Origin: Patescibacteria group bacterium
GTDB taxonomy: Bacteria; Patescibacteriota; Patescibacteriia; Magasanikbacterales; GWA2-37-8
Length of the DNA: 64,000 bases
Direction: 5' to 3'
Assembly: GCA_004321885.1 (NCBI GenBank)
Contig: SCQK01000007.1
Span: 150,540 to 214,539, forward strand
Of the stretch, positions 5,221 to 63,799 are shown piece by piece (position 1 is the first letter of the stretch; every line of letters begins with the position of its first letter). The notes under the pieces were generated by a model, which was given only the letters and a program-made list of their open reading frames with translations, searched no databases and was not told the origin of the DNA. Both the position numbers and the translations under genes were made by a program.

Positions 5221-5221
5221 C

Positions 5222-5292
5222 TGTCATTGCGAGGCCTGAAAGGCCGAAGCAATCCCTTGCAATGTGGGATGGGATTGCTTCGCTTCGCTTGC
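5222..5292. terminator. long imperfect palindrome (GTCATTGC...GCAATGAC arms) between convergent radA and recG; likely bidirectional terminator and repeat-family member
   Basis: gtcattgcgaggcctgaaaggccgaagcaatccc...gggattgcttcgcttcgcttgcaatgac. Confidence 0.5.
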
Positions 5293-8922: not shown

Positions 8923-8985
8923 AATGGTTAATTGTTTTTAATGTCTGCTCTCTTTTTAATATTATACACCAAATCCAAACGTCAA

Positions 8986-11169
8986 TCAATCCTTCTTTAT
9001 CTCCAGCACAAGCGGCTCGGACAGGTTGCGATAGCCGCCGCTGTTGTATAGCTGCAAATCCGGAAATTTTATTTTAGCGCCATTTTCGCTCAACTCGTAG
9101 AGCACGCCCTTGGCGGCGGTTTCCAGAGCGACCGCGCCCGCGGACACGTTCGCGGTCTTGCCGGAAAGCAAATTCTTGGCGCTCCAGCCGGCCGTGCTGA
9201 ATTGACCCGCTGTCATCTTCACCGCGAAAGTCCCGTCTTTCAAAACACCGGCCCCGCCCAAATCAAACTCCAATTCGTGGTCGTAATTAAAATCCATGGC
9301 GCTGACAGCCGCCTGCCCGGCAATATATTGGGGCGGAAATTTTTCCCGGTACTTCACTTTTACTTTCCACTTGCCCAGATACGGATACTTGGCGCCCTTG
9401 GCGGCGGGCCCGGTCATTTCCCCATCAGCGGCAAAATCAAGCGCGCCTTTGTAATTGGCCGACAGGGAAAAAAGCGGGGTGATGACGAGCGTCTTGTTGG
9501 CGCTGATGCCGAAACAGCTCGGCCGGTTGTCCACCACCAGCCGGGTTATGCTGGTTTTCTTGCTTTGCTCGCCGTTGCTGAAAATCAAAACCACTCTTTC
9601 AAAATTTTCTTTGGCAATTTCCAGGCAAAAAGCCCGGCTCTCTTTATTTGTCCAATCCTCTATATACGGCGGCTCGGATTTGGCTTTGGGAAAAATCACC
9701 GCCTTAACGCCGGCCTTGTCCAACTGGCCAGAAAATTTTTTCAAGTCGCCAAAAATGACTTTTTTAATTTTCTTGCCTTCGTCCGCCACCGAGACCTCGG
9801 CCACCTGCGCGGTCAGGGCGGCCACCGGGTCCTGCCATAAAATAAAAGCGCCCAATTCGGAATAAAGATGCATTTTCGCGTTCGCGCCTTCATCAGACGA
9901 GCGCTTGGGAAAAACCCCGCTTTGGTCTTTATAAAAATTCACCGGCGCGCGGTTGTAATTCCACAACGTAAATTCTTTCCAGTTCGCTTTCAGGCCGCCG
10001 GCGATGGTTTTGTCGGCCGCTTCCAGCGCCGAGGCGCTTCTGGCCGCGTCAAAAATTTTCTTGATAATGCCTACGCCGTATTTTTGCGACAGATAAAACG
10101 GAAAAACATAAGCGCCGTATTCGTGATTCTGGCCGTCTTTGTACAAAGCGACTTCAGGTTTGGGAATAAAAGTGCCGCTGTATTCCTGTTCAGTATTTAA
10201 TTTTGGGTAAATAAAATCCTCGGCCCAGACAGCCGTGCCCTCTATCCACCACCAATTTTTAGCCGAAAACGCCGAACCAAAAGCGTGCTGGAAAGTATGA
10301 AACAACTCATGGACTGTCGTGCCTTTGAGCATGGCGTCGCTTAAATTGTCGCGCACGATGACAAAACTGCTTTTGTTGTTCGGGTCCGGCACGTTCACGC
10401 CATAGGTGGAGCCGCTTTTGGATTTTACCCACTTGCTCGTGCCGGCCACCACATAGATGTCGGTCTTATTGTCTCCGCCCAAAGCGCCGTCGGGCGGCGG
10501 CTCCACGCCGAGCAAATCCTTGAAGCGGGTGTAGGCCTTGTCGGCGTTCAGGTTGGCGGCAATTTTTTTAGCCGTGTTGTCAAAGAGCGCTTGCTTCACC
10601 TGTTTGCCGTCTTCCATTACGGTAATTTCCGGATGCCAAATTTTAATTTTGCCGTCGGCGGTAACCAGAGCGCCCTTAAAACTTAGCGGCCGGTCATAGG
10701 CCAGGGCGGCTTCCGCGAAACGGAAAAACTCCGGCTGGCGAGCGCGCTCCATGGCCAGTTTTTGCTCTTGACGGTTGATAAAACTATCCGGGTCATCCGG
10801 GCGTTTGAAATACGGCGCCAAAATGGCTTTCGTTTTGTCCGATAGCTGGCCGTAGTTTTCCATGAGCCGAACAAACACCCCCGCGTCTTCAAACACCAGC
10901 TGGCCGCTCCAATATTTTTCCGGCAGTTTCTCGTCATCTCCGAAAAGAAATTGTACTTTATATATTAAAGCCGTCTCAAAATCAATTTTTCTATCCGTCA
11001 AGTCCTGTTCTATCATGTCCAGGCCGGTCGGGCCGGTGGCCAGCCGCGACTCTTTGGACGCCGGTACTAATTTGAGCCGCCAAAAAGCGGACAACAAAAA
11101 AGCCGCCAGGGCAATCAAAACACCGGCGGCTTGCAAAATAGTTTTCTTTTGTGGAAACGCGATGGTCAT
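8986..11169 (-). CDS. large secreted HExxH zinc-metallopeptidase-like protein
   Basis: N-terminal TM/signal; TTVHELFHTFQH motif; ATG at 11167-11169. Confidence 0.5.
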   Translation of the reverse strand: MTIAFPQKKTILQAAGVLIALAAFLLSAFWRLKLVPASKESRLATGPTGLDMIEQDLTDRKIDFETALIYKVQFLFGDDEKLPEKYWSGQLVFEDAGVFVRLMENYGQLSDKTKAILAPYFKRPDDPDSFINRQEQKLAMERARQPEFFRFAEAALAYDRPLSFKGALVTADGKIKIWHPEITVMEDGKQVKQALFDNTAKKIAANLNADKAYTRFKDLLGVEPPPDGALGGDNKTDIYVVAGTSKWVKSKSGSTYGVNVPDPNNKSSFVIVRDNLSDAMLKGTTVHELFHTFQHAFGSAFSAKNWWWIEGTAVWAEDFIYPKLNTEQEYSGTFIPKPEVALYKDGQNHEYGAYVFPFYLSQKYGVGIIKKIFDAARSASALEAADKTIAGGLKANWKEFTLWNYNRAPVNFYKDQSGVFPKRSSDEGANAKMHLYSELGAFILWQDPVAALTAQVAEVSVADEGKKIKKVIFGDLKKFSGQLDKAGVKAVIFPKAKSEPPYIEDWTNKESRAFCLEIAKENFERVVLIFSNGEQSKKTSITRLVVDNRPSCFGISANKTLVITPLFSLSANYKGALDFAADGEMTGPAAKGAKYPYLGKWKVKVKYREKFPPQYIAGQAAVSAMDFNYDHELEFDLGGAGVLKDGTFAVKMTAGQFSTAGWSAKNLLSGKTANVSAGAVALETAAKGVLYELSENGAKIKFPDLQLYNSGGYRNLSEPLVLEIKKD

Positions 11170-11242: not shown

Positions 11243-11249
11243 ATGACTA

Positions 11250-11280
11250 GATTCCCCCGTACTTAGTCGGGGGAATGACA
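11250..11280. repeat. GATTCCCCCGTACTTAGTCGGGGGAATGACA palindromic element next to the tRNA-Arg 5' end
   Basis: Identical to the radA copy at 4293-4324. Confidence 0.8.
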
Positions 11281-36990: not shown

Positions 36991-37040
36991 CCCCTCCCAT
37001 GCCCCTCCCCTAAAAGGGGAGGGATGAAAAGTGGGGTTGC
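36991..37040 (+). promoter_or_regulatory. CCCTCC/GGAGGG double-hairpin element in the rpmF 5' UTR
   Basis: cccctcccatgcccctcccctaaaaggggagggatgaaaagtggggttgc. Confidence 0.55.
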
Positions 37041-38690: not shown

Positions 38691-39464
38691 CTAAACCGTC
38701 ACACTCTCTACTTTTATTCTTCCTTCCAAATAATTTTTATCATCTTTGAACGCGGCCGTTGCTTCATCCGCCAATTCGCCACTGCCCAACACAATTATTA
38801 CAAACGGATTTTCTGTTGTAAATAATTCTCCAAATCCGTGATGGCCGAAAGCGATATTTACCGCCACTTTTAATTCTTCGGTCGCGTATTCAGCCGGCAA
38901 ATACGCGCGGCTGATAACAAAACCCATGGGCAAACCATCGGCAGACGGATTAAATTTTCCCGTGCCGTCAAAATACACCACACGCGCGCTGTGAAATTCG
39001 GCCGGCCGCGCCATTTCTGTCAAAGCCACATGGCGGTAGCGCGCCCCGAGTTTGTCGGCTAATTTTTTCGCCCAATCAATCGCCAAATTATCCATTTGCT
39101 CGGATGTCGGTTCGGTTCCTTGGTTGTCGCGCTTGTAAGCGAGCCCGGCCGCGCCGCAACCTCCGTGGCTTGTGATTTCGCTCACGCCCAAATTTTTCAT
39201 CAGCCCGGCTGTTTTTTTCAGCCGCTCGGCTTCGGAGCTCGCCGGAAACAAAATGCCAGAACCGGCCATGGGGAATTTTGTCAGGCCGCCCATTTTTTTG
39301 TGCGCCACGCCTTCATCCATGCAGACAACGCACTCGTGCGTGTTCACAAAACATTTGCCCCACTCCGGCAAATTTTTTAAATATTTTTCCGTTCCCTGTT
39401 CGTAAATTTTTCGCATTACTTCTTGTCCATTGCTCCATTCAGCTTCCAGATTCTCATTATGCAT
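38691..39464 (-). CDS. beta-carbonic-anhydrase-like protein (divergent; native codon usage)
   Basis: CVVCMDEGV resembles the CxDxR motif; SHGGCGAAG resembles HxxCG. Confidence 0.4.
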   Translation of the reverse strand: MHNENLEAEWSNGQEVMRKIYEQGTEKYLKNLPEWGKCFVNTHECVVCMDEGVAHKKMGGLTKFPMAGSGILFPASSEAERLKKTAGLMKNLGVSEITSHGGCGAAGLAYKRDNQGTEPTSEQMDNLAIDWAKKLADKLGARYRHVALTEMARPAEFHSARVVYFDGTGKFNPSADGLPMGFVISRAYLPAEYATEELKVAVNIAFGHHGFGELFTTENPFVIIVLGSGELADEATAAFKDDKNYLEGRIKVESVTV

Positions 39465-39559
39465 AAAGTTGTCATTCCAATTTAATATCGCATTACGCGA
39501 AATTTAGAGATAAGCACCAACCCGCCGCGCCTATCTCCTTGGAACTTGGCAGGCAAGTG

Positions 39560-40207
39560 CTAAGCGGCGTCAGACGACTCCAACAGCCCGGGATCCGGCT
39601 CTTTTCCTTGAGGCCAGACCTCAATCTCCGGGTGCGTCTTCCTCCACTGCACCCATCCCTTGGCCCGAAGCCTCAAGAAACTATGATACCCCGAGTCATG
39701 ATCGTAGAGGCCGAAGATGAGAAGCACCTTCGTCTTTCCGATGGCCAGGCGCTTCTTGATATTCAGCTTGCCCTTGACCATCAGGTCAAGACACTGTATC
39801 AGCTTCAGCTTGTACTTTTCACAACCGCGGCAGGTGGCGTGATGACCTACAATGGTGAGGTAGTTATTTCCCTCGGTGTTCATGAACGTCCGCAGGGTTA
39901 CTTCTATTACAGTATAGTACGGCCGATCGTCGTTCAGCGGGGAGAAGGGGAAAACCGCCAGGTGCGCCCCCACGAAACTGACGTTCGCCATGCCGTTCAG
40001 CGGGTCTCTTCTTCCCCGGCCAGCCAGCGAAAGGACGCGCTCATCGGCCTCTTGGTTGAAGCGGCCGCATCCGCAAGTGATGTACGCCTTGCCTGGCTCA
40101 AAGCCGTGGCCGTCCAGCCGATTAAGTACCCCGGCCGCCAACAACTGACTAATGACCTTTCGCTCCTCATCGTTGTAGCCGAATAAACTTGACTCCCTCT
40201 GTGTCAT
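39560..40207 (-). CDS. beta-carbonic-anhydrase-like paralog (GC-rich, AAG/GAG codons; likely horizontally acquired)
   Basis: ITCGCGR and VGHHATCRGC motifs; strong SD AAGGAGG; the + strand mirror ORF was rejected. Confidence 0.45.
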   Translation of the reverse strand: MTQRESSLFGYNDEERKVISQLLAAGVLNRLDGHGFEPGKAYITCGCGRFNQEADERVLSLAGRGRRDPLNGMANVSFVGAHLAVFPFSPLNDDRPYYTVIEVTLRTFMNTEGNNYLTIVGHHATCRGCEKYKLKLIQCLDLMVKGKLNIKKRLAIGKTKVLLIFGLYDHDSGYHSFLRLRAKGWVQWRKTHPEIEVWPQGKEPDPGLLESSDAA

Positions 40208-40358
40208 CTGTGTAACCTCCTTGGTTAGGAAGGTGCGTTTGTTGATTGATAATATGATATTGTATTGATTTTAACTAAAAAAGTCAAAAAAAGAAGGCCC
40301 GACCGCAAAAGCTGAAAAACTTGCGGCGGACCTTGAAAGGACAAATAAAGCAGACAGC

Positions 40359-40925
40359 CTACTGTGGACGGACGAGCTGCATGCGGCGGAACTCGCGCCA
40401 CTTCTTACCGGAGAGGAAATACGTTCTCTTATCCTCTTCCGCTCCAGTCCAGTCCACATGAAGCTTGCACCTCACGCGGAGGCCGTGGTTGATCTCATCC
40501 TTGATCTCATCCTTGACGCCGACTATCCAGTCGACGATGGTGATGACGTCCAGCCCCCAGGCATCAGCTTTCCCACAGGGGACATGAGCAATGAGGACCA
40601 CGGTGTCAATCTCCTTGAGCTCCCGCGACTCGCGAATCTCCTCGAACAACATGTTGCCCTTCTCGCGACCGGCGGGATCCGGGCACTTGCGGTTCATCAG
40701 CAGAGGACCGCCGTTGATGGCGTGTAGGTGCGGCCGGGGCCGGCAGACACGCTCAATATACTTCATCTGATCGAGCGCCTGATCGCCATCGCCGCAGAGC
40801 ACCACGATCGCCCCGCCGCTGACATCCAACAATTTCGGCTCGACGTCCAGGAAAAAACCCTCTTCGCGCAGAACTGCCAGATCGTGCAACTCCTTCTCGG
40901 TAAGCTTACGGGCGTGTTTTCCCAC
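40359..40925 (-). CDS. beta-carbonic-anhydrase-like paralog (GC-rich; GTG start with SD)
   Basis: VVLCGDGDQ and IAHVPCGKADAWG motifs. Confidence 0.45.
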   Translation of the reverse strand: MGKHARKLTEKELHDLAVLREEGFFLDVEPKLLDVSGGAIVVLCGDGDQALDQMKYIERVCRPRPHLHAINGGPLLMNRKCPDPAGREKGNMLFEEIRESRELKEIDTVVLIAHVPCGKADAWGLDVITIVDWIVGVKDEIKDEINHGLRVRCKLHVDWTGAEEDKRTYFLSGKKWREFRRMQLVRPQ

Positions 40926-41301
40926 TTGCGTCTCCTTTTGGCGTAGGTAGTTGAGGGAAAGAGCGCTTCAAATTTTGAAACACTCGGTTTCATAATTTGC
41001 GAACATCATTTTACTCCGCTTCTCAAAAAAAATCAAGGGTCGTTCTTTTTTGAAAAACAATTTTTTACAGACTGCTTGCGGGGTCGCATGACCCTGTGCA
41101 TAACTTTTCCTAAAACTATTTTCATTCCGAAAAAAAAGTTTTATAATATATGCAGGTCGAGAAGAAAAATTTTACGTTGATGCTTGTCATGTAAAATTTC
41201 TTCAAAAATTTTTGCCGCGCTCATCAGATGGGAACTTACCCTAGGGGGCTCTCACGAGGATGAACGCCCAAAAATTATCTTACTCTCTATTCCAGACCTG
41301 T

Positions 41302-41325
41302 ATCCCGACTAAGTCGGGATGACAG
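41302..41325. repeat. ATCCCGACTAAGTCGGGATGACAG palindromic element in the micro-ORF leader
   Basis: CCCGACTAAGTCGGG core shared with the rRNA/intron hairpins. Confidence 0.7.
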
Positions 41326-41354
41326 TGCGCTGGGACAGAAAGGGGGTGTCTATT

Positions 41355-41402
41355 ATGGCCAAGAAGAAAGCCAAGAAGAAGGGCGGTAAGAAGCGAAAAT
41401 AG
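41355..41402 (+). CDS. 15-aa poly-Lys micro-ORF MAKKKAKKKGGKKRK
   Basis: SD AGGGGG plus 8 nt then ATG; immediately followed by a strong terminator. Confidence 0.35.
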   Translation: MAKKKAKKKGGKKRK

Positions 41403-41413
41403 TTTGGTAACTA

Positions 41414-41447
41414 AAACCTCCCGGCTTAGCCGGGAGGTTTTGTTTTT
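41414..41447. terminator. bidirectional rho-independent terminator (aaacctcccggc-ttag-ccgggaggttt then T7)
   Basis: Ends the micro-ORF (+) and the PHP gene (-). Confidence 0.7.
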
Positions 41448-42751
41448 TAGAATAATCGCGACTGGCCTCCGCCCATTTTTTCACGGTCGCCCAGGGCGTT
41501 CACTGTTCCGAACACGCCGTCGTAACCGGGCTTTACTTTCACCCGGCCAACGCGCGCGTTGGCGATGGCCAAAGCGATATTTTTATCCGAAGCGTATTTT
41601 TTTATCTCTTCCAAATCAGCGTCCAATAAAATATGAAATTCACTGCCGATATTTTTAATCAGATTTTCATACTCTAACGCCACTTTTTTGCCGGCCGTTC
41701 CCACGCCGAATACCGCCGCGATTATTTCCCGCAAAGGCACGACGTACTTGTGCGGAATAAATTTTTCCGCCGGGATATTTTCTTCTTCGCGGTCAGCCAA
41801 ATCATCTACGCGATGCAAAACACCGACTGTTAAATTTTTTTTGCATTTGGGGCAAATATTTTTTAATTTTTTTGTTTCTTTGGGCGCCAGGCAAACCTCG
41901 CACGCCGCGTGTCCGTCAAAATGATACTTGCCCTCTTCGGGAAAAAATTCTATGGTGTGCAAAAACTTTCTCTTGTCGCCTTCTTTTATTATCCGCGTGA
42001 TTTCGCCATAAGTAATTTCGTTTTCTTCCGCAAAAGCGAACGCATTGGCCTCGCGGCCGATTTTGTCCGGACTGTGCGCGTCGGAATTGGACACCAGGGT
42101 AATATTATCCAGCTTTGAAAGACGACGGTTCATTGCCGGGTCGCTGGAGAGTCCGGTTTCTATGGCGCGGATATGCGGCGTTAACTCTTCAAAGCACTCT
42201 GTCAGCGAATCATAGCCGGATTTGGAGCCGAAAACCGCGAACCAGGGAGTCCAGGCATGGGCCGGAATGAGTAAAAATCTTTCGTCAATTTCTAAAAGCA
42301 TTTGCAAAACGGCTTTGGCCGATAAACCCATTATCGGCCGGCCGTCGGATTTTAGGTTCACGCTCTTTTTTTCAAACTGCGCGTTCAATTTTTCCACCGC
42401 GGCGATATTGGGCGCCAAAATCACCAAATGCAAACGGCGGGTTTTGTCTTGGTGTTTGTAGATGCAGGAAATCTCGGTGGAGAGGATGAATTTAACCCCT
42501 CCTTGTATCCCTCCCCTATTAGGGGAGGGGCAAGGGGTGGGGTTTTTCAATTCATACAATCCGCTCTCTCCAATCTCGGACAAATTTTCTTTTATATGCC
42601 CCAGCCAGGCCGGATGCGTGAAATCGCCGGTCGCTACAATATCAACTCCCTTGCGCGCGCAAGCCGCGGCGATTTTTGGCAATTCCAAATCAGGCGAACA
42701 AGCGCGTGAGTATTTGGAATGAATGTGAAAGTCAAGAATTTGTTTGAGCAT
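41447..42751 (-). CDS. PHP-domain protein with C-terminal zinc finger, endonuclease Q-like
   Basis: LDFHIHSKYS PHP motif; GHAACEVC...CPKC; in-frame CCCTCC/GGAGGG element (PTPCPSPNRGGIQGGV). Confidence 0.5.
   Translation of the reverse strand: MLKQILDFHIHSKYSRACSPDLELPKIAAACARKGVDIVATGDFTHPAWLGHIKENLSEIGESGLYELKNPTPCPSPNRGGIQGGVKFILSTEISCIYKHQDKTRRLHLVILAPNIAAVEKLNAQFEKKSVNLKSDGRPIMGLSAKAVLQMLLEIDERFLLIPAHAWTPWFAVFGSKSGYDSLTECFEELTPHIRAIETGLSSDPAMNRRLSKLDNITLVSNSDAHSPDKIGREANAFAFAEENEITYGEITRIIKEGDKRKFLHTIEFFPEEGKYHFDGHAACEVCLAPKETKKLKNICPKCKKNLTVGVLHRVDDLADREEENIPAEKFIPHKYVVPLREIIAAVFGVGTAGKKVALEYENLIKNIGSEFHILLDADLEEIKKYASDKNIALAIANARVGRVKVKPGYDGVFGTVNALGDREKMGGGQSRLF
42496..42545. repeat. 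CCCTCC/GGAGGG hairpin element inserted in frame in the PHP gene
   Basis: cccctccttgtatccctcccctattaggggaggggcaaggggtgggg. Confidence 0.75.
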
Positions 42752-43871
42752 ATTGAATCGCGGCAGCGACCGCGCGCGAGATATTTTTATCCAACGGGTC
42801 GGGCAAAATTTGCTCGGCGGTCGGCGACGGCACCAGCGCGGCCAGGGCGCGGGCCGCCGCCAGCTTCATTCCCATGGTAACTTTTTTTATTCTGCCGTCC
42901 AGCAAGCCGCGAAATACTCCCGGGAAAGCCAGCACGTTATTCACCTGATTGGAAAAATCACTGCGACCCGTGGCAACGAGCGCGGCGCCGGCCGCGCGCG
43001 CCAGGTCGGGCATTATTTCCGGCACTGGATTGGCCATAGCAAACACAATCGCGTCCTCATTCATTGTTTTTATCATTTCCGCAGTCAGAAGTCCCGGCTT
43101 GCTCACGCCCACAAAAACATCCGCGCCCGCTACGGCCTGCGCCAAACCGCCGCATTTTTTTGCCTTATTCGTAAAAGAAGACAGTTCGCTCTTTGCTTCG
43201 TTCAAATCGCCACGGCCTTCCACGATGATGCCTTTGGAATCAACGACGGTAATGTTTTTCACGCCAACGCCATACAAAATGTTGGCCACGGCCGTGCCGG
43301 CCGCGCCCGCGCCGCTAATCGCGACATCCGCTTCGCTCAAATTTTTACCTGCCACCCGCAAAGCATTAAGCAGTCCGGCCAAAACCACGATGGCTGTGCC
43401 ATGCTGGTCATCGTGAAACACCGGAATGTCTAAAATTTCGGCCAAACGCCTTTCAATTTCAAAACAGCGCGGAGCGCTAATGTCTTCCAAATTAATGCCG
43501 CCGAAAATCGGAGATATCGCCGCCACGATTTTTATGATTTCTTCCGTGTCCTGCGTAGCGAGCGCGATGGGCACCGCGTCCACATCGGCGAATTCCTTAA
43601 ACAGCACGCACTTGCCTTCCATCACCGGCAAACTGGCTTCGGCGCCGATATTGCCCAGGCCCAGCACCGCGCTGCCGTCTGTTACTACCGCCACCAAATT
43701 ATTCTTGCGGGTCAAATCATAGACCAAGTTTTTATCCCGCGCTATCGCCTTGCACGCTTCGGCCACACCGGGAGTATAGGCCAAGGATAAATCCGCGCGC
43801 GTTTGTATTTTCGCGCGCGATATGACTTCTATTTTACCTTTTAATTTTCGGTGATATTCAACAGGGTCCAT
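42732..43871 (-). CDS. NAD(P)-dependent malic enzyme (short form)
   Basis: Malic-enzyme N-domain plus Rossmann (AISGAGAAGTAVANIL). Confidence 0.8.
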   Translation of the reverse strand: MDPVEYHRKLKGKIEVISRAKIQTRADLSLAYTPGVAEACKAIARDKNLVYDLTRKNNLVAVVTDGSAVLGLGNIGAEASLPVMEGKCVLFKEFADVDAVPIALATQDTEEIIKIVAAISPIFGGINLEDISAPRCFEIERRLAEILDIPVFHDDQHGTAIVVLAGLLNALRVAGKNLSEADVAISGAGAAGTAVANILYGVGVKNITVVDSKGIIVEGRGDLNEAKSELSSFTNKAKKCGGLAQAVAGADVFVGVSKPGLLTAEMIKTMNEDAIVFAMANPVPEIMPDLARAAGAALVATGRSDFSNQVNNVLAFPGVFRGLLDGRIKKVTMGMKLAAARALAALVPSPTAEQILPDPLDKNISRAVAAAIQYAQTNS

Positions 43872-52916: not shown

Positions 52917-53030
52917 ATTATTTAAATTTACCTTTCGGTTATAATAAAAATAAAGGTCATATAGGTAAATATGATTATACTCGGCCGCGTATTCTAAAGT
53001 TTTAACTCTTTCATCCATATAAATACCCTA

Positions 53031-53063
53031 CCCTTTTTGTCCCTCCCCTAAGAGGGGAGGGAG
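53031..53063. repeat. CCCTCC/GGAGGG hairpin element overlapping the pfk 3' end (encodes the last 5 codons and stop)
   Basis: ccctttttgtccctcccctaagaggggagggag. Confidence 0.7.
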
Positions 53064-54289
53064 CTAACGACGGGTGCAGCCAGGCGATCGAGCGTGAAAA
53101 TATCGCCGACGAGCGGACGCGCATAGTTTATAAATTCTTGGGTCACCATGTTATCGCCGGCAATAAATTCATCGGGCATCTTTTTGGTTTTGCCGGCCAC
53201 ATCGCCCAAGGGCAATAATTTGTACTCTACAGCGTAATCGCCCACGCGGTTTATGGCCACCGATCCGTCCACGTTGTGCCAAACTGAGTACTGTACTGCT
53301 TTTTCGCCCACCTCGCGCGCTTCGTGCCTGTCTATTTCGCTGACACAACCCAAAAATGAGCGTTGTAAATATCCCAGGGTGTCGGCGCGTACCCGTTTGA
53401 TGCCTGTTTTGACCTTTACCAAACCAGCCAACATGTCTCCAAGGGCGCCCGAACCAGATAAGGTTACATTGCCGTGCGGGTCAACATCCAACCCTGGATT
53501 CCTGCTGGATTCCCCCGTACTTAGCCGGGGGAATGACATTGCCATCAAATTCCCTGCTTTGTCCGCGATCCCCTCAGAGACCGCCACCACGCATCGGCCA
53601 TATTTCTCGTAAACACTTTTCACGTCAACGCAAAATTTTTCCGCGTCAAAAGCGCGCTCGGGTAGATAAATCAAATGCGGTCCGTCATCGGGAAATTTCT
53701 TAGCCAAAACCGAAGCGGCTGTTAAAAAACCGGCATGCCGGCCCATCACCACCGCGATATACACGCCCGGCAAAGAACGGTTATCCAAATTCGCGCCGGC
53801 AAACGCGCTGGCCACATAACGTGCGGCCGAACCATAGCCCGGGCAGTGGTCGGTACCGACCAAATCATTGTCTATCGTTTTGGGGATATGAACCACGCGC
53901 AATTCGTAATTGGCTTTATTCGCCTCTTCGTTCACAATGCGGCAGGTCTCGGCCGAATCATTGCCGCCGATATAATAAAAATACCGTATGTCGTGTTTAC
54001 GCATCACCTCAAACATCTGGCGGCAATACTCGGCACCCGGCTTGTCGCGCGTGGAGCCCAAAGCCGCTCCAGGCGTGTCGGCCACGCGCTCCAGATTATG
54101 CGTAGTAGATTCGGTGAGGTCTAAAAAATTTTCTTTGATTATTCCCGACACTCCAAAACGGGCGCCGTATACTTTTGTTATTTCCGAAAATTTGCGCGCC
54201 TCCAAAACCACGCCGGCCAGGGACTGGTTTATCACCACGGTCGGCCCGCCCCCCTGGGCCACCAAAGCTTTACCGATTAGTTTGAACAT
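53048..54289 (-). CDS. pfk: 6-phosphofructokinase (PPi/ATP-dependent PFK-A family)
   Basis: GGGPTVVINQS, PFK fold; contains an in-frame palindromic element (MSFPRLSTGESSRNPG). Confidence 0.8.
   Translation of the reverse strand: MFKLIGKALVAQGGGPTVVINQSLAGVVLEARKFSEITKVYGARFGVSGIIKENFLDLTESTTHNLERVADTPGAALGSTRDKPGAEYCRQMFEVMRKHDIRYFYYIGGNDSAETCRIVNEEANKANYELRVVHIPKTIDNDLVGTDHCPGYGSAARYVASAFAGANLDNRSLPGVYIAVVMGRHAGFLTAASVLAKKFPDDGPHLIYLPERAFDAEKFCVDVKSVYEKYGRCVVAVSEGIADKAGNLMAMSFPRLSTGESSRNPGLDVDPHGNVTLSGSGALGDMLAGLVKVKTGIKRVRADTLGYLQRSFLGCVSEIDRHEAREVGEKAVQYSVWHNVDGSVAINRVGDYAVEYKLLPLGDVAGKTKKMPDEFIAGDNMVTQEFINYARPLVGDIFTLDRLAAPVVSSLPS
53496..53538. repeat. compound GGATTCCTGCT plus GGATTCCCCCGTACTTAGCCGGGGGAATGACA element in frame in pfk
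   Basis: Same element as 4293-4324. Confidence 0.8.
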
Positions 54290-54304: not shown

Positions 54305-54385
54305 TCTCGCTCTCCCCTTATAAAGGGGAGAGAAACACTCCCTCCCCTTGCCCCTCCCCTAAAAGGGGAGGGATAAAGGGTGGGG
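54305..54385. promoter_or_regulatory. two tandem CYCTCCCCT/AGGGGAGRG hairpins between the HD-gene stop and the pfk start; supplies G-rich SD for pfk
   Basis: ctctccccttataaaggggagag...cccctccccttgcccctcccctaaaaggggaggg. Confidence 0.6.
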
Positions 54386-54387
54386 TA

Positions 54388-55041: not shown

Positions 55042-55067
55042 AATTTTCCTCCCCACCGCCCAAAATT

Positions 55068-55098
55068 GTCATTCCCCCGACTAAGTACGGGGGAATCC
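55068..55098. repeat. GTCATTCCCCCGACTAAGTACGGGGGAATCC element (reverse orientation of the radA copy)
   Basis: Upstream of the HD gene. Confidence 0.8.
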
Positions 55099-55271
55099 AG
55101 GGTCAATATAGCTAAGTCCACTCCAATTTTATCGCAAAACAGCGTAAAGGTCAAACGAAAAAACCGCCAAATTAAAAACCGGCGATTCAGAAAAACCGCC
55201 GGTCGCAGAAGAATAATCTGCTGGTGTGACACGGAGACGAAATACTCTCGCCTCCGCGTTATGTAAAAGTG

Positions 55272-56851: not shown

Positions 56852-56968
<117 letters not shown>

Positions 56969-57009
56969 GCGTGTTTAAGTTTTTTGCAATAGGGACGGAT
57001 TCCCACGGT

Positions 57010-57037
57010 GGATTCCTGCTCGAAGGCAGGAATGACA
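57010..57037. repeat. GGATTCC-TGCTCGAAGGCA-GGAATGACA element in the 23S-5S spacer
   Basis: Could double as a processing stem. Confidence 0.6.
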
Positions 57038-57343
57038 GCGAGGGAAAGCACAGCTTAATGCTTTTGTCGTACGCTCGACCTATTAGTACTCCTCCGCTCA
57101 AGCCATTACTGGCCTTACACGTAGAGCCTATCAACCTTGTAGTCTACAAGGGGTCTCAACGAACATTAATCTTGAAGACGGCTTCACGCTTAGATGCTTT
57201 CAGCGTTTATCCGTGCCGAACGTAGCTACCCGGCAATGCCCTTGGTAGGACAACCGGCACACCAGAGGTTCGTCCACTCCGGTCCTCTCGTACTAGGAGT
57301 GAGCCTTCGCAATGTTCAACGCCCGCAACAGATAGGAGACCGA

Positions 57344-57664
57344 CAATTTTGTTACATTCCCGACTTTCCGCCGACTGGCGGACGGGACGGCGCATTATTT
57401 CTAACACGCTCTGCATGTCGCCATGCAGTTCGGACTATATCTTCCCTGAACCTTATTGGTTCGCGGGTCTAGCGTATAGTCTCTGAGGATTCTCTCTTTG
57501 AGAGTCTTTCCTGCTGGTTGTCTGCACTTGCCGCTTTATTACTTATAAAATAAGTAGCGCAAGATACTTTGGTTTCACTCCTAAATGAAACCTTCCAGAG
57601 TTTCCAGCATTTAGCTAGATTTATAGACAGCGCGGTTTGTGGCTAAGATTAGCCAAACTCTTCC
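57344..57664 (-). mobile_element. group I intron, ORF-less (321 nt), at E. coli L2593-like site (GAGACAGT|...|TCGGTC)
   Basis: 5' exon ends U, intron ends G; S-box AAGATATAGTCC present. Confidence 0.65.
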
Positions 57665-57708
<44 letters not shown>

Positions 57709-57744
57709 TGGCGAACAGCCAAACCCTTGGCAGCTTCTCCACCG

Positions 57745-57780
<36 letters not shown>

Positions 57781-57819
57781 GGACCGTCTATATGGACTAT
57801 CGGGTCCGATCAGCCTGTT

Positions 57820-58683
57820 CATATTACTTCCCCTATTACTAGGAGTACTGACTATATCTTCATCCCAACTTTGCCCAGTCGGGAGTACGGCATATTGTGG
57901 CGCGCGATTTCCTTCACTATGAATGCGCCACCTCGGCCTTAGGCCTCAGTCGATACGGGGTTCTTCATCAATTTTGTACCGCATGCTTTCTATCACATAC
58001 GGGGCAATTATTTTTTGCAGTTTCCTGGTGTCCTTCACGCAAAATTTCAAATCCATGGCTTTTGTTTTTTTTAATTCCAGCTTTGGGTGTAGATTGAAAT
58101 TTTTCGCGAAGACTCGTTTCAGTCCGCTGATGCTTTCGGCGTTCAGCTTGGACAGATAGATATACGCGGTTTTATCGCGTTTATAATAATATCCATCATC
58201 CATAAACCATACTGCCAATACTAGAGGATCAAATAATTTTTCAATTATTTTTGGAACTTGCTTGTCGCCGTTTTCATAAAACAGCGCATGCAATTTTCCA
58301 AACTCTGGCGATGAATGCGACTGGCATCGGTAATAGGCATATTGTTTCCGCCAAATCGGATTAAAACGCGTCAAATACTTTGGTTTTGATTGCATATATC
58401 GTTCAAGCTCGCGCCACTTCCAGAAAATATATTCTTTCTGACGCGAACTATGCTCCAAACGCAATCGCGCGTTTTTCTCGCCGGTTTTTTGCAAAAAACC
58501 ATCGCCTAATACACAGCCAATCGCTATACTTCTTTCGCGTTGATTCATATGTAATGTAATTTAACGCGATGAAGAACTTCCCACGGTATTCCCCTTCCCG
58601 TTTGGGATTCGGGGTTCACCGTTATTAGCCGTTTTCTTGTTCCGATATTACTACCGGAACGGGACAACAACCCTTTCGGGTCT
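57820..58683 (-). mobile_element. group I intron at the L2449 (omega/I-SceI-type) site GGGGAT|...|AACAGGC with LAGLIDADG ORF
   Basis: Exons rejoin to GGGGATAACAGGCTGAT; S-box GAAGATATAGTCAG. Confidence 0.7.
57946..58548 (-). CDS. LAGLIDADG homing endonuclease (intron-encoded)
   Basis: IGCVLGDGFL plus second motif. Confidence 0.75.
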   Translation of the reverse strand: MNQRERSIAIGCVLGDGFLQKTGEKNARLRLEHSSRQKEYIFWKWRELERYMQSKPKYLTRFNPIWRKQYAYYRCQSHSSPEFGKLHALFYENGDKQVPKIIEKLFDPLVLAVWFMDDGYYYKRDKTAYIYLSKLNAESISGLKRVFAKNFNLHPKLELKKTKAMDLKFCVKDTRKLQKIIAPYVIESMRYKIDEEPRID

Positions 58684-58872
58684 ATCCCCGGAGTAGCTTT
58701 TATCCGTTGATCTTCCACTCTCCTATATGAGGTGGTCGGTTCACTAACTTCCGCTTTCGCGACTGCTCGGGTTGTAGCCCTTGCAGTAAAGCCAGCTTGT
58801 GCGTTTGCGCGTCCAGCTCGATTTCCATCCGAGCTAAGCTGACCTTTGTAAACGCCTCCGTTACATTTTAGG

Positions 58873-59809
58873 CAATTGTGTTACCTTAATTTTCCTAACT
58901 TATATTCCATTTTCGGAATAATATAGGGCCTGATGATATTAACGAATTCCTGCACCGATGACGCGAGCAAGTAAATCTGCTTGCCTTCTTTCTGCTTTCG
59001 CAGTTTGGTTGCTATCTTGTATTTATTCGACAGAACCCTTCGCAATCGGCGCAGACAAATATCGGAATAACATTGTGTGTTTAGAATTAACGCCCGATGA
59101 TGATTTGATTTAATGGAACCATCATCCATAAACCATACTGCCAATCCGAGCGGCGTCAGCCATCGATGAATCAATTTAGGCACGGTCTTCTCGCGGCCGC
59201 GATAGAATTGCGCGGCGTAGAAGCGCAGAGCCGGATGACTCACTGTGTTAAACCAATATTTTTTGTACAGCTTGCCGTTCACTGTCTGGTCTTTGATTTT
59301 AGGAGGAGTTATCACCCAATCCTTGAACTTGTCATAAATCCAATCAACGTATGCCTTTTGGCTAAGTCCGTGCTGGACCATTAACCGATAAGCGACGCCG
59401 GAATTATGATTAGATAGGTGACTGTCTCCCAGTAATGTTCCGACCAGTATCTCACGCTGTACTTTTGTTAATTTCAATCCCTTCTTATACTCTCTTAACT
59501 TCAGAGTATTCATAATTTTAAGGACCAAATTTAATTTGGTGCTCTATGTCGCCATAGAGTTCAGACTATATCATTATCCCGACTAAGTCGGGATACCTGG
59601 CATGTAGTCGTTGAGGGGTCATCCCGATTAAATTGGGAGACTTCCCTGCTGGTTGACCGCAGGCGCGCATTTTCACCCCGACGTAACGTCGGGGTAGCGC
59701 GGCCATACTCCGGTTGTTCTAGCATATAGCCAAGTTTGCTTTCAATGTCGCCATTGAAACGCCCTTCGTGATGTTCCAACATTCGTTGGCGTAACGGACA
59801 TCACGACTC
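58873..59809 (-). mobile_element. group I intron in the domain V region (~E. coli 2260) with LAGLIDADG ORF; boundaries tentative
   Basis: Exons rejoin to GGGGCGGTTGCCT|CCTAAAATGTAACGGAGGCG; S-box ATGATATAGTCTGAAC; contains two CCCGAC...GTCGGG hairpins. Confidence 0.5.
58881..59513 (-). CDS. LAGLIDADG homing endonuclease (intron-encoded)
   Basis: VGTLLGDSHL plus second motif. Confidence 0.7.
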   Translation of the reverse strand: MNTLKLREYKKGLKLTKVQREILVGTLLGDSHLSNHNSGVAYRLMVQHGLSQKAYVDWIYDKFKDWVITPPKIKDQTVNGKLYKKYWFNTVSHPALRFYAAQFYRGREKTVPKLIHRWLTPLGLAVWFMDDGSIKSNHHRALILNTQCYSDICLRRLRRVLSNKYKIATKLRKQKEGKQIYLLASSVQEFVNIIRPYIIPKMEYKLGKLR

Positions 59810-60103
59810 AGGCAACCGCCCCAGTTAAACTACCCACCAGACACTGTCTCCTTTGGCCGATTCAGGTCAAAAGATTAGGCATAAATTCATCTAAGGGTGG
59901 TATTTCACTGTCCCCCGACTAGGTCGGGGTCCCACCTATTCTAAACATAAATAAGCTTATGCCAATATCAAGTTGTAGTAAAGCTTCACGGGGTCTTTTC
60001 GTCTAGTTGCGGGTAGGAGGCATCTTCACCTCCCTTGCAATTTCACCGAGTCCCTCGTTGAGACAGTCGCACTATCGTTATGCCATTCATGCGGGTCGGA
60101 ACT

Positions 60104-60811
60104 CCAATTGTTATCACTGTGTTTCCACAATGTTCAGACTATACTTTCATCTTCCCGACAATATTTAGGAGATCTGTTTTTAAATAGCGGCGCGCTCCGA
60201 TGTTATTCATCGTATAGGCACTGGCTATAATTTCCTTTATACCATTTGTCGACAAGTGAAGATTTGACTTCATTGAGCGACAAATTTTTCTCAATATTTC
60301 AAAGTCATTTTGCTTTGAAGTTCTTAGAGGGTATCTGTCAAAGTGCGGCATGATTTTTTTTATCAAATCATCCAGACTTCGCACCTCGTATTTGTACGTC
60401 TGATCATGACTGTCAAAGCGAATACCGCCACAAGCAAAATAATTTTTCAATTCTTCCAGAACCGATAAATTACGCTTGTTTTGGCTGACCGTGAAACTTG
60501 GTCTGACTTCAATCCCGACGGATAATTTATCGCGTCGTGAGAACGAAACCAGAAAGCTTCCTTCGCCATCAACAATTCCCGAAACGTACCAAGGATTTAT
60601 CTCCATATACTGTCTCCTTTCTTGGGAAGAGCCGGCGTGTTGCCCGCTTTTGGCAGGCCTCATCTTTCGATTCAGTCGTTACGGGGCTTTGCTTCCCAGC
60701 AAAGCTTCCCACGGTATTCCCCCATAGGGGTTCACCGTTATGAGCCGGTTTGCTAATATCGCGTCACCGCGATACTCGGGCAAGTATTATCTCCGACCCG
60801 GAGATTTGTTC
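60104..60811 (-). mobile_element. group I intron at the L1931-like site TTGTCGGGT|...|AGTTCCGACC with LAGLIDADG ORF
   Basis: S-box GAAAGTATAGTCTGAAC near the 3' end. Confidence 0.65.
60139..60606 (-). CDS. LAGLIDADG homing endonuclease (intron-encoded)
   Basis: VSGIVDGEGSF; SD AAAGGAGA before the ATG. Confidence 0.75.
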   Translation of the reverse strand: MEINPWYVSGIVDGEGSFLVSFSRRDKLSVGIEVRPSFTVSQNKRNLSVLEELKNYFACGGIRFDSHDQTYKYEVRSLDDLIKKIMPHFDRYPLRTSKQNDFEILRKICRSMKSNLHLSTNGIKEIIASAYTMNNIGARRYLKTDLLNIVGKMKV

Positions 60812-60831
60812 ACCCGACAAGGAATTTCGCT

Positions 60832-61303
60832 CGACGCTTCCTTTTTAATAGCGTTGGACTATATCTTCATCCCCGACTAAGTCGGGGAGCATAGCGTTTA
60901 GTCTCTGAGGATCCTAAACTGTTAAGCCCCTGTTACTGCGTAGTAACATTTAATCGCAAATGCGAATTATCCTCAATCATTATTTTTATAACACCATCGC
61001 ATAAGCGCTCGCTAAAGCACATCTGCAAAAAATTTTGTAGTAGTTTGAAGGTGATATGATTAATGATTAGAGGGGCCTAACGCAATTTTGTTATTAATAA
61101 CATAATTGCATTAAATTAGTTTCCTGCTGATCATCCCGCTTGGGACTTCCCAGCATATGGCTATGATTGGATTATACCACACATCACTGTGCGGTAAGGC
61201 AGCTTTTTTAATGGCTTTGATTTGATCCTCTGCTGATCACGATTGTTTACATATCGCTATCTCCGTCCCAATCCTTGTGAATTCGTGGGTAAACGAATTC
61301 ACA
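60832..61303 (-). mobile_element. group I intron, ORF-less (472 nt), at the L1917-like site CCTAAGGT|...|AGCGAAATTCC
   Basis: Separated from the next intron by a 20-nt exon; S-box GAAGATATAGTCC. Confidence 0.65.
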
Positions 61304-62111
61304 ACCTTAGGACGGTTATAGTTACCGCCGGCGTTCATCAGCGCTTCGGTTCAAGGCTGCCTTCCCGACTAGGTCGGGAAATGACCTCTCCCCTTAACGT
61401 TCTGACACTGGCCAGGCATCACCCCCTATACTTCAGCTTGCGCTTTTGCAGGGAGCTGTGTTTTTGGTAAACAGTCGCAGTGCGTCTTTTGTTGTAATCC
61501 CGACTAAGTCGGGACGGGCCTTATCCCTAAGTTACGGCCGCTGTATTGCAGAGTTCCTAAACGAGGGTTCTCTCGTACGCCTTGGTCTTCTCGACCTATC
61601 CACCTGTGTCGGTTTACGGTACGGTTGCGCGCGACTTAACGATTCATGCCTTTTCTAGGCACCTCTCCGTCTTAAGTTGACTCCACCCGAGGGCTTTGTC
61701 TTCGCCTTGCGGCACGTGTATAACCAAAACACGCTTAAAATTTTGAGATGCGCAACATGAATCAAATCGCGCCCAGTGCTGGAATATTAACCAGCTCATC
61801 CATCGACTACCCCGCCTGGCGGCGGACTCGCCTTAGGACCGACTAACCCTGGGTCGATTCTCGTTGCCCAGGAAACCTTGGATTTTCGGCGCTCCGGATT
61901 CTCACCGGAGTTTTTGCTACTTATGCCTGCATTCTCGCTTCCTTGCACTCCACCACGGCTCACGCCTATGGCTTCAGCGCGCAAGGAACGTTCCTCTACC
62001 ATTCATCTGTATATAAATATACAAACAAATTCGCAGCTTCGGTACCATATTTAAGCCCCGTACATCTTTGGCGCTAAAACTCTTGACCAGTGAGCTGTTA
62101 CGCTTTCTTTA

Positions 62112-62147
<36 letters not shown>

Positions 62148-63504
62148 AAAGAATTAGAACCGCCTTGTTTGCACTTAACATGGATTTAGGGACCTTAGCT
62201 AGCGATCTGGGCTGTTCCCCTTTTGACAATGGCGCTTAGCCGTCACTGTCTGACTCCTGAGATCTGGCTACTGGCATTCGGAGTTTGATTGAAAACGGTA
62301 TCCCGAAGGACCCAATTCTCATCCAGTGCTCTACCGCCGATAGAAACTCTCAAGGCTAGTCCTAGAACTATTTCGAGGAAAACCAGCTATCACCGAGTTC
62401 GATTAGAATTTCTCTCCTATCCACAGTTCATCTCCGCGTGTTGCACGGCGCGTGAGTTCGGACCTCCCCTTCGATTTCTCGAAGGTTCATCCTGACCATG
62501 GATAGCTCACCCGGTTTCGGGTTATGTGCGTGCCACAAACGCCCTTTCAGACTCGCTTTCGCTGCGCCTACGCCCCAGAGGGGCTTAAGCAAGCGGCACA
62601 CATCACACTCGCAGGCTCATTCTTCAATAGGAACACGGTCACCCTTGCGGGCTCCCGCTCTTTGTAAGCGCATGGTTTCAGATACTATTTCATCGCCCTC
62701 TCCGGGCTGCTTTTCACCTTTCCCTCGTGGTACTTGTCCACTATCGATCACCAAAAGTATTTAGTCTTGGACCATAGTCGGCCCGGCTTCAGACGGAATT
62801 TCACGAGTTCCGTCCTACTCAAGAACACTAGCTATGATTTTTTAACTCCTTTCGCGTACGGGACTATTACCCTCTCTGGTTGTTCTTTCCAGAACATTCT
62901 ACTAGGAAGGTTAAAACGCTCACCCGACTTTGCAGAAAGTCGGCGCTAATGTCTTACAACACTCCACAAACAACGGTCTGCACCTTTAAGCCGCGTCAAA
63001 TTAATCTTGCGATCAACCGTTCGCGGCAACATTTATGGAGTTTGGACTTTTCCCTTTTCGCTCGCCGCTACTAAGGGAATCTCTTCGATTTATTTTCCTC
63101 TGGCTACTGAGATGTTTCACTTCGCCAGGTCTTCTTCATGCGGCTATGTATTCACCGCACAATGATCTCTTGCCAATTCCATCTCCAAACTTTTGCTTGA
63201 ACAAGATTGGCTTAGCGTTTCTTTCAGAAACGGAATTGGCAAGAGATCGGGTTTCCCCATTCGGAAATCCCCGGGTCAAAGGTTGCTTGGGACCTCTCCG
63301 AGGCTTATCGCACCCTGCAACGTCCTTCATCGTCTTTTGGTGTCAAGGCATCCGCCATGCGCCCTTGGTAAAATTGCGCACGACAGAAGCACTAAATTGT
63401 GCTTCGTCGCTTACTACCCTATTGCTTTACCACCACACCAAAATTTTTTGGTGTGCGTGGTTTATTTTAAATTGTCAAAGTGCTTTCTTTTGTCGTCCGT
63501 CTCT

Positions 63505-63670: not shown

Positions 63671-63710
63671 TGTTCGTCTCTATGGAACAACATTTGTGTT
63701 TGTTTCACTT

Positions 63711-63740
63711 GTCATTCCCCCGACTTAGTCGAGGGAATTC
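63711..63740. repeat. GTCATTCCCCCGACTTAGTCGAGGGAATTC element
   Basis: Member of the radA/pfk family. Confidence 0.7.
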
Positions 63741-63799
63741 ACAATTTAGTTCCCAGAGGTCCAAGCGATAAATCTACTGGACGTGGTCCCGATAATTTT

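Follow-up and report, generated by a model that had tools for sequence, protein, structure and literature searches.

Predicted beta-carbonic-anhydrase-fold proteins of Patescibacteria, encoded in a gene cluster and in some related loci beside ATP synthase genes

Introduction

What are the products of three adjacent genes in a Patescibacteria genome, when the database labels all of them "hypothetical proteins"? We examined a stretch of 64,000 nucleotides (the window; part of the 214.5-kb contig SCQK01000007.1 of assembly GCA_004321885.1) from a Patescibacteria metagenome-assembled genome (MAG), in which gene A (EPN28_02345; positions 38691–39464), gene B (EPN28_02350; 39560–40207) and gene C (EPN28_02355; 40359–40925) lie head to tail on the minus strand. 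An initial annotation, made from the DNA letters alone, had read their products as three paralogues resembling beta-carbonic anhydrases (beta-CAs), two of them in a partly imported island. The three open reading frames (ORFs), of 257, 215 and 188 amino acids, are present, all on the minus strand, and the peptides quoted for that reading occur in the translations (CVVCMDEGV and SHGGCGAAG in A, ITCGCGR and HHATCRGC in B, VVLCGDGDQ and HVPCGKADAWG in C). Here we describe A as a predicted two-lobed beta-CA fold with native codon usage, C as a predicted single-domain beta-CA fold that begins with GTG, and B, which begins with ATG, as a degenerate paralogue of C. We also describe the relatives of these genes, which in a minority of loci adjoin the operon for F1Fo ATP synthase.

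Results

Predicted fold

The assignment to the beta-CA fold and superfamily is one that we hold with high confidence; it comes from structure prediction and fold search for A and C and from homology to C for B, and it bears out the original call. The AlphaFold2 model of A, built on a 60-sequence alignment, reached a predicted local distance difference test score (pLDDT) of 97 and a predicted template modelling score (pTM) of 0.93, and the model of C, on a seven-sequence alignment, reached 83.7 and 0.83. The best structural matches of the A model were CsoSCA of the alpha-carboxysome shell (8thm) and the two-repeat Porphyridium beta-CA (1ddz). For the C model the top 19 matches were all members of the beta-CA superfamily, with the first unrelated fold at 8.1. 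In the predicted secondary structure of both models, strand 1 ends at the first Cys (C48 in A, C44 in C) or just before it, a His closes strand 3, and three residues further on comes the second Cys. Beta-CAs have this arrangement.

The A model aligned with 8thm_A over 189 residues, compared with about 89–110 residues for single-domain beta-CAs, which suggests that both lobes of the predicted structure match. We infer that A is a two-lobed, pseudo-dimer-like protein. CsoSCA carries a full metal site in one lobe only, and A likewise appears to have a single complete Cys-Asp-His-Cys site. The sequence of A is not similar to that of CsoSCA or 1ddz, A is only about half as long as CsoSCA, and it has neither a detectable internal repeat nor the Arg of the catalytic pair. 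Its neighbours in the window and in related loci included no carboxysome genes.

Searches with sequences and profiles gave fainter signals. Scans of A, B and C against Pfam, NCBIfam, PHROGs and PADLOC returned zero matches at E ≤ 10, so a profile search does not place them in Pro_CA (PF00484), and they do not count as members of that curated family. The single proteins and the A profile, searched against PDB sequences, gave only noise. The best PDB sequence match of the C-family profile was the Porphyridium beta-CA (E 0.013), with H-x-P-C-G aligned to GHYGCGG, the H-x-x-C zinc-ligand motif of beta-CAs. Like the Pro_CA enzymes (Methanobacterium Cab, 1g5c; fungal CafD, 6lac), A and C share Cys-x-Asp and His-x-x-Cys-Gly at the ends of strands 1 and 3. 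Their C-x-D-x-R, however, corresponds to C-x-D-G-D-Q in the C family and to C-M-D-E-G-T in the A family, and sub-threshold Pro_CA matches appeared in only 3 of 68 C-family members (best E 0.049).

The closest sequence relative of the C family is Pro_CA_2 (PF20393), an uncharacterised family described as "putative carbonic anhydrase". Alignment of the C family with a Pro_CA_2 protein using hhalign gave a probability of 93.4% (E 2.6e-7) with C-x-D and H-x-x-C aligned, and local hidden Markov models (HMMs) of the two families gave weak cross-matches. The gathering score of Pro_CA_2, 30 bits, is passed by neighbouring proteins in five loci (L001, L005, L083, L087 and L100; 32–65 bits); neither A, B and C, even at E ≤ 10, nor the C homologues P0106–P0110 match it. 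The Pro_CA_2 proteins found here are shorter (112–155 amino acids), and those of L001 and L005 keep the Arg of C-x-D-x-R. Pro_CA_2 and C-family genes are alike in position, occupying the same slot beside C-family genes and behind atpC. The initial annotation had also suggested a likeness to hydrolases of carbon disulfide (CS2) or carbonyl sulfide (COS); in the fold search CS2 hydrolase (3ten) and COS hydrolase (3vrk) were structurally no closer to C than ordinary beta-CAs.

Putative metal sites

In the 60-sequence alignment of the A family, C48, D50, H100, C103, H158 and D166 are invariant, and E51, G52, S99, G104 and A105 are nearly so. In the C family, C44, H114 and C117 are found in 152 of 152 members and D46 in 151, and H66, K104, A120 and Y169 are each kept in more than 90%. 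We place the putative metal site at C48, D50, H100 and C103 in A and at C44, D46, H114 and C117 in C. The Cys/Asp/His/Cys positions picked earlier are thus the conserved ones in both families, and chance motif matches are excluded.

In characterised beta-CAs the Arg of the Asp/Arg pair is conserved. At that position of C-x-D-x-R the A family has the near-invariant Gly52, and the C family has Asp48 in 132 of 152 members and His, Arg or Asn in the others. Absence of this Arg in a beta-CA would leave the Asp to bind zinc, closing the site. B is the sole member of the 152 without a complete C-D-H-C tetrad: Cys, His and Cys are kept, and the position of the catalytic Asp holds Arg, or Gly/Cys, according to the register of the C-G-C-G-R segment, which differs between MAFFT and hhalign. 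B also lacks the near-invariant H66, K104, A120, R167 and Y169, and has an extra Cys beside both ligand positions. The missing Asp/Arg dyad that had been remarked on is therefore confirmed, with Gly52 in A and Asp48 in C replacing the Arg and no Asp in B.

Two families and a degenerate paralogue

A word-index search found 104 homologues of A, all unnamed or labelled "hypothetical" and none with a Pfam domain; in species-representative genomes the family occupies 46 loci, most of them in labelled Patescibacteria lineages. The same search found five relatives for C, and B matched only itself. It was too insensitive for the C family, as a full HMMER scan of 1.84 billion representatives showed: 714 clusters (50% identity) passed E ≤ 1e-3, and 553 of them the stricter E ≤ 1e-10. 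The C family is large but fast-diverging. Members of both families came, in this analysis, mainly from Patescibacteria. With families of this breadth, the module is not the surprise that it had been taken to be in a cell of the candidate phyla radiation (CPR). No domain fusions were found in the longer C-family members. IMG/VR contained no relatives of C or of the A profile, and a search of viral folds in BFVD with C returned nothing at E ≤ 0.001, the top-ranked entry being a giant-virus carbonic anhydrase. We also observed A-family homologues in a MAG labelled Aenigmatarchaeota (DPANN archaea), as two consecutive ORF fragments (L052, 97–1382) and on a separate contig of the same MAG (L055, 5118–5579), and in MAGs labelled Acidobacteria and Gallionella; these occurrences may reflect transfer or mis-binning.

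Pairwise BLASTP among A, B and C found nothing significant, and the claim of three paralogues stands only for B and C. Against a C-family profile built without B, B aligned over 176 columns with a probability of 95.6% (hhalign, E 1.2e-8); an HMM of the family built without B matched it at E 5.8e-12, and phmmer with B alone as query recovered C-family members at 2e-11. Judged by these comparisons, B is a tandem, degenerate paralogue of C. A has no significant sequence similarity to B or C. The A and C profiles resemble each other weakly and only in the H-x-x-C-G region (probability 24–46%, E 2e-4 to 8e-4), so that A shares its fold with B and C without demonstrable common sequence ancestry.

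Genomic context

To view the neighbourhoods, we used the A profile to gather 46 loci from species-representative genomes and a narrower C sub-alignment to gather 50 from metagenomes, and scanned their ORFs with local HMMs. A C-family gene lies beside an A-family gene in eight loci (the window, L008, L016, L045, L067, L069, L089 and L094) and beside a Pro_CA_2 gene in eleven (L001, L005, L081, L082, L083, L087, L098, L100, L101, L102 and L104). A second C paralogue adjoins the C gene in the window, L045 and L077. In L045 the order is A, an intact C-like gene and then a C-like gene without ligands, the same pattern as C and B.

ATP synthase subunits were the commonest neighbours of both families when neighbours were clustered. 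CA-fold genes adjoin the F1Fo ATP synthase operon in 21 loci, mostly directly downstream of atpC. The order is atpF, atpA, atpG, atpD, atpC, A, C and the degenerate C-like gene in L045; atpC, A, C in L067 and L089; atpC, A in L029, L036, L040 and L048; atpC, C in L064, L078, L085, L088 and L099; and atpC, C, Pro_CA_2 in L083 and L100. In L053 the A gene (4527–5285) sits inside the operon between atpA and atpG, and in L066 and L097 C and atpB are neighbours on opposite strands. Among loci with at least 600 nucleotides of upstream sequence, atpC immediately precedes the A gene, in the same orientation, in 5 of the 41 from the A scan (gaps of −11 to 58 nucleotides), and 8 contain any atp gene. 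In the C scan of 31 loci, atpC was upstream on the same strand in 9, seven of them direct (gaps of 8–185 nucleotides) and two with an A gene between, and any atp gene in 11. By our estimate, the chance of a gene lying directly after atpC is about 0.1% in a genome of about 1,000 genes.

The window uses a second recurrent context, without an atp gene: an MJ0043_C-like gene, C (in some loci only), A, tRNAs, RNase III, NusB and L32. An MJ0043_C-like gene lies near an A or C gene in 14 loci. A recurrent gene of 503 amino acids 5' of A was considered and rejected, having, by our reading, an N terminus like that of methionyl-tRNA synthetase in L039 and L046 and being unrelated to other ORFs of that length. 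Some other neighbours are observations in their own right: a malic enzyme (window 42732–43871, minus strand) two genes away from C, subunits of pyruvate:ferredoxin oxidoreductase near the module in L008 (1285–3429) and, in L001 (7411–9570), a Na+/H+ exchanger that immediately follows the C homologue. Such CO2-releasing or proton-handling neighbours may be coincidental synteny.

Three A homologues from Chloroflexi (L047, 5803–7194; L049, 5785–7257; L050, 5791–7188) combine an A domain with a C-terminal FliL domain (PF03748, about 70 bits). FliL surrounds the proton-conducting stator units of flagella. By our reading of their sequences, all three begin with a twin-arginine/lipobox-like signal, and in them a CA-fold domain would be exported together with the stator-associated module to which it is joined. 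The nearby ORFs, called roughly in these GC-rich, unannotated loci, included no evident flagellar genes.

Codon usage and translation signals

B and C differ sharply from A in composition. Gene A has a GC content of 0.49 and a GC content at third codon positions (GC3) of 0.52, uses AAG for 1 of 19 Lys and GAG for 6 of 25 Glu codons, and has no clear Shine–Dalgarno (SD) sequence. The corresponding values are 0.56, 0.72, 13 of 14 and 11 of 13 in B, with the SD AAGGAGGT, and 0.59, 0.76, 12 of 15 and 15 of 17 in C, with the SD AAGGAG. The 52 long ORFs of the window average 0.50 in GC and 0.578 in GC3 (standard deviation 0.074), and the AAG share across the other ORFs is 0.05–0.50; B and C are the extremes of the window in AAG and GAG use and the top two in GC3. 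In 1-kb windows GC rises only modestly, to 0.53–0.55 from about 0.50. An SD match of at least six nucleotides was found in 1 of 48 other ORFs, with their start codons taken mechanically and uncurated. The high-GC, AAG/GAG-rich character of B and C and their strong SDs, both pointed out in the initial annotation, were thus found again.

The same bias runs through the C family. In 32 of 36 loci GC3 is higher in the C-family gene than the average for the rest of the locus (median difference +0.10; P = 2e-6, sign test), and the excess is greatest in A-linked loci (mean +0.185, Mann–Whitney P = 0.0012). In L008 the C-family gene in the same syntenic slot has a GC3 of 0.75 versus 0.46, AAG for 13 of 15 Lys codons and a GGAGG SD. 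Raised GC3 is a trait of the whole family and is alone no proof of recent import into this genome; because the bias is family-wide, we draw no such inference from it, and the partly imported island is not established. The cause of the signature may be repeated transfer or a selected style of expression. L008 also contains an orphan gene of 139 amino acids (8635–9054, plus strand) without a Pfam match, between L32 and the next gene, with a GC3 of 0.68 versus about 0.46, AAG for 6 of 7 Lys, GAG for 10 of 13 Glu and a GGAGG SD. Perhaps genes with a C-like codon and SD style form a class in such genomes.

Local organisation of the window

On the 3' side of A lie tRNA-Arg(tcg) and tRNA-Lys(ctt), their ends abutting the A stop codon, and beyond both tRNAs come RNase III, NusB, L32 and a FemAB-like gene. 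On the 5' side of C an AT-rich spacer of 520 nucleotides is followed by a PHP/MJ0043_C-like gene, the malic enzyme and an S-adenosylmethionine methyltransferase. A scan of ORF upstream regions placed the SD of C at 40932–40937, six nucleotides 5' of its GTG start, and that of B at 40215–40222, seven nucleotides 5' of its ATG, both on the minus strand. Candidate sigma-70-like promoters on the same strand, recognised by match to the consensus, precede C (TTGATT-17 nt-TAAAAT, 41008–41036) and B (TTGACT-17 nt-TACAAT, 40259–40287; 10 of 12 positions). Directly 3' of C, a hairpin followed by a U-run (40285–40335, minus strand) is a likely intrinsic terminator, with a fold energy of −25.5 kcal/mol (z −4.7) that 0 of 200 shuffles equalled, and the candidate promoter of B is placed directly after it. 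The same check of fold energy found no significant hairpin 3' of B, so A and B may be co-transcribed.

A plus-strand ORF of 215 amino acids (39539–40186) is an almost exact antisense mirror of gene B. It is probably a by-product of the G/C-ending codons of B, which avoid stops in the antisense strand; the minus-strand reading of B is supported because B is homologous to the C family.

A conserved mini-gene for a poly-lysine peptide of 14–25 amino acids was also observed. In the window it lies at 41355–41402 on the plus strand and encodes MAKKKAKKKGGKKRK, with AAG for 7 of 9 Lys codons and a perfect 14-bp hairpin terminator 3' of it (41412–41442). Other copies occur in L008 (4793–4849), L010 (5639–5716), L015 (5639–5710), L016 (4655–4723), L059 (5579–5653), L069 (2543–2587), L094 (5629–5697) and L083 (8247–8318). 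The mini-gene has a strong SD (AAAGG[A/G]GGTG), stands just upstream of the A or C genes on the opposite strand in all loci but L083, and is kept even without a C-family gene (L010). One possibility is that the peptide is a small protein that binds ribosomes or nucleic acid.

Elsewhere in the window, 56856–63378 (minus strand) holds genes for 5S rRNA and 23S rRNA, the latter interrupted by insertions. Two of the insertions are group I introns (57411–57693 and 59542–59780), and ORFs lie within insertions at 57946–58548, 58881–59528 and 60139–60663. Two families of short palindromic repeats resembling repetitive extragenic palindromes (REP-like), CCCCTCCCCTAAAAGGGGAGGG... and TGTCATTCCCCCGACTAAGTCGGGGGAATC, are present. 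One set of coordinates comprises 36991–37037, 42497–42543, 53029–53075 and 54340–54386, and a second 4292–4324, 11248–11280, 53506–53538, 55062–55100 and 63710–63742; there is a degenerate copy at about 41300–41335. The copy at 42497–42543 lies inside the PHP/MJ0043_C-like ORF, where it appears to insert the in-frame segment PSPNRGGIQGGV.

Discussion

We favour, with a probability of roughly 0.55, the reading that A and C are beta-CA-fold zinc enzymes and B a non-catalytic partner, with a role in the handling of protons and bicarbonate. A and C would bind zinc through Cys, His and Cys while the conserved Asp activates water, and would hydrate CO2 (CO2 + H2O <-> HCO3- + H+) or a similar small linear molecule; we consider it an even bet that their catalysis is CA-like. 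B would be a non-catalytic or metal-locked partner, and it may pair with C because beta-CAs work as dimers. The module would bring CO2, bicarbonate and protons rapidly into equilibrium for a proton-translocating machine, or would control cytoplasmic pH, in fermentative cells. We favour this role because CA-fold genes cluster and follow atpC, and because a FliL fusion exists in Chloroflexi. Position in the atp operon suggests a putative link between CO2/bicarbonate chemistry and proton pumping, and functional coupling of the module to the ATPase is a tentative proposal to which we give somewhat less than even odds.

Several points weigh against this reading. With the catalytic Arg missing in both families, the sites could be closed or inactive. 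The structures of A and C are predictions, no curated profile recognises A, B or C, and the two lobes of A give no sequence signal of an internal duplication. Linkage to atp genes is found in a minority of loci, about 12–35%, and the module of the window itself has no adjoining atp genes, being flanked by the PHP/MJ0043_C-like gene, tRNAs and RNase III.

The missing Arg would be expected if these were structural or regulatory proteins of beta-CA fold without hydratase activity, whose site holds a structural or redox-sensing metal, and which serve the F1Fo ATPase as accessory, assembly or regulatory factors in the manner of the non-catalytic gamma-CA subunits of plant complex I. Retention of B and of the second L045 paralogue, degenerate and clearly non-catalytic copies, fits such a role, as does the tight spacing of A behind atpC (−11 to 58 nucleotides). 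A structural zinc, however, needs no Asp, and the Asp is invariant in A and kept in 151 of 152 C-family members; moreover, most loci are not beside atp genes, and the interchange of three CA-fold families at one position fits shared chemistry better than a specific fit between proteins. We judge this explanation unlikely. Slightly less probable still is that A and C are zinc hydrolases for a substrate other than CO2, such as COS, CS2, cyanate or cyanamide-like molecules. Their second shells are indeed unlike those of canonical CAs (D48, Q49, H66, K104 and Y169 in C; E51, G52, H158 and D166 in A), but no sulfur-metabolism or cyanate genes were seen among recurrent neighbours, and proximity to ATP synthase or a Na+/H+ exchanger and fusion to FliL speak for protons rather than sulfur. 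That the motifs are coincidences in an unrelated fold, to which the lack of matches in Pfam, NCBIfam, PHROGs and PADLOC and of significant BLASTP hits among A, B and C might have pointed, has a negligible chance: it is already contradicted because two independent, confident structure predictions both have beta-CAs as top matches, the motif residues are the invariant ones and profiles link the families to beta-CA and Pro_CA_2.

A different question is whether B and C form a recent foreign island between native genes, with GC3, codons and SDs that reflect the donor genome. No other ORF of the window is as extreme as these two in AAG and GAG use or as high in GC3, and they carry its strongest SD matches; each has a promoter-like site and C its own terminator; and L010, a related locus of the same synteny, has no C-family gene. 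Set against this, the GC3 bias belongs to the whole family and is strongest in A-linked loci, including the same slot in L008, L016, L069 and L094. There are no flanking repeats other than short ones at chance level, no integrase and no direct abutment to a tRNA, A separating the tRNAs from B and C. IMG/VR and BFVD yielded no viral relatives, and the adjacent, conserved and apparently native poly-lysine mini-gene also combines a strong SD with AAG codons. We regard recent import as possible but on balance doubtful.

Returning to the favoured reading of A and C as zinc enzymes with B as partner, a bolder version of it, which we offer as speculation and think more probably wrong than right, is that A, C and Pro_CA_2 together make up a class, so far unrecognised, of beta-CA-fold proteins that partner proton-driven rotary machines, acting through interconversion of CO2, HCO3- and H+. 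In Patescibacteria their expression would go together with that of the F1Fo ATPase, in Chloroflexi one would be exported and fused to FliL, and catalytic/pseudo-catalytic heteromers such as C with B would feed protons to the mouth of the channel or drain them from it. The GC3, AAG/GAG and SD signature of the C family would then mark a special regime of expression, not foreign origin.

The fold superfamily is already known; the proteins described here have an altered second shell of the active site and a recurrent genomic link that we did not find described. The papers searched contain nothing on the A and C families, on PF20393, on CA in CPR/Patescibacteria or on CA with the atp operon. Two large families without a Pfam or NCBIfam match, of at least 714 (C) and at least 100 (A) sequence clusters, are added to the beta-CA superfamily, and any activity that they have must do without the canonical Asp/Arg pair. 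C and B offer a natural pair of catalytic and degenerate paralogues for studies of pseudo-enzyme evolution. The family-wide codon signature is one that the standard logic of genomic islands would mistake for recent transfer. Patescibacteria live by a pared-down fermentative metabolism, and whether their ATP synthase makes ATP or maintains the proton gradient is a matter of debate; the position of these genes at the 3' end of atp operons leads to the testable hypothesis that CO2/bicarbonate chemistry is tied to the handling of protons in these cells.

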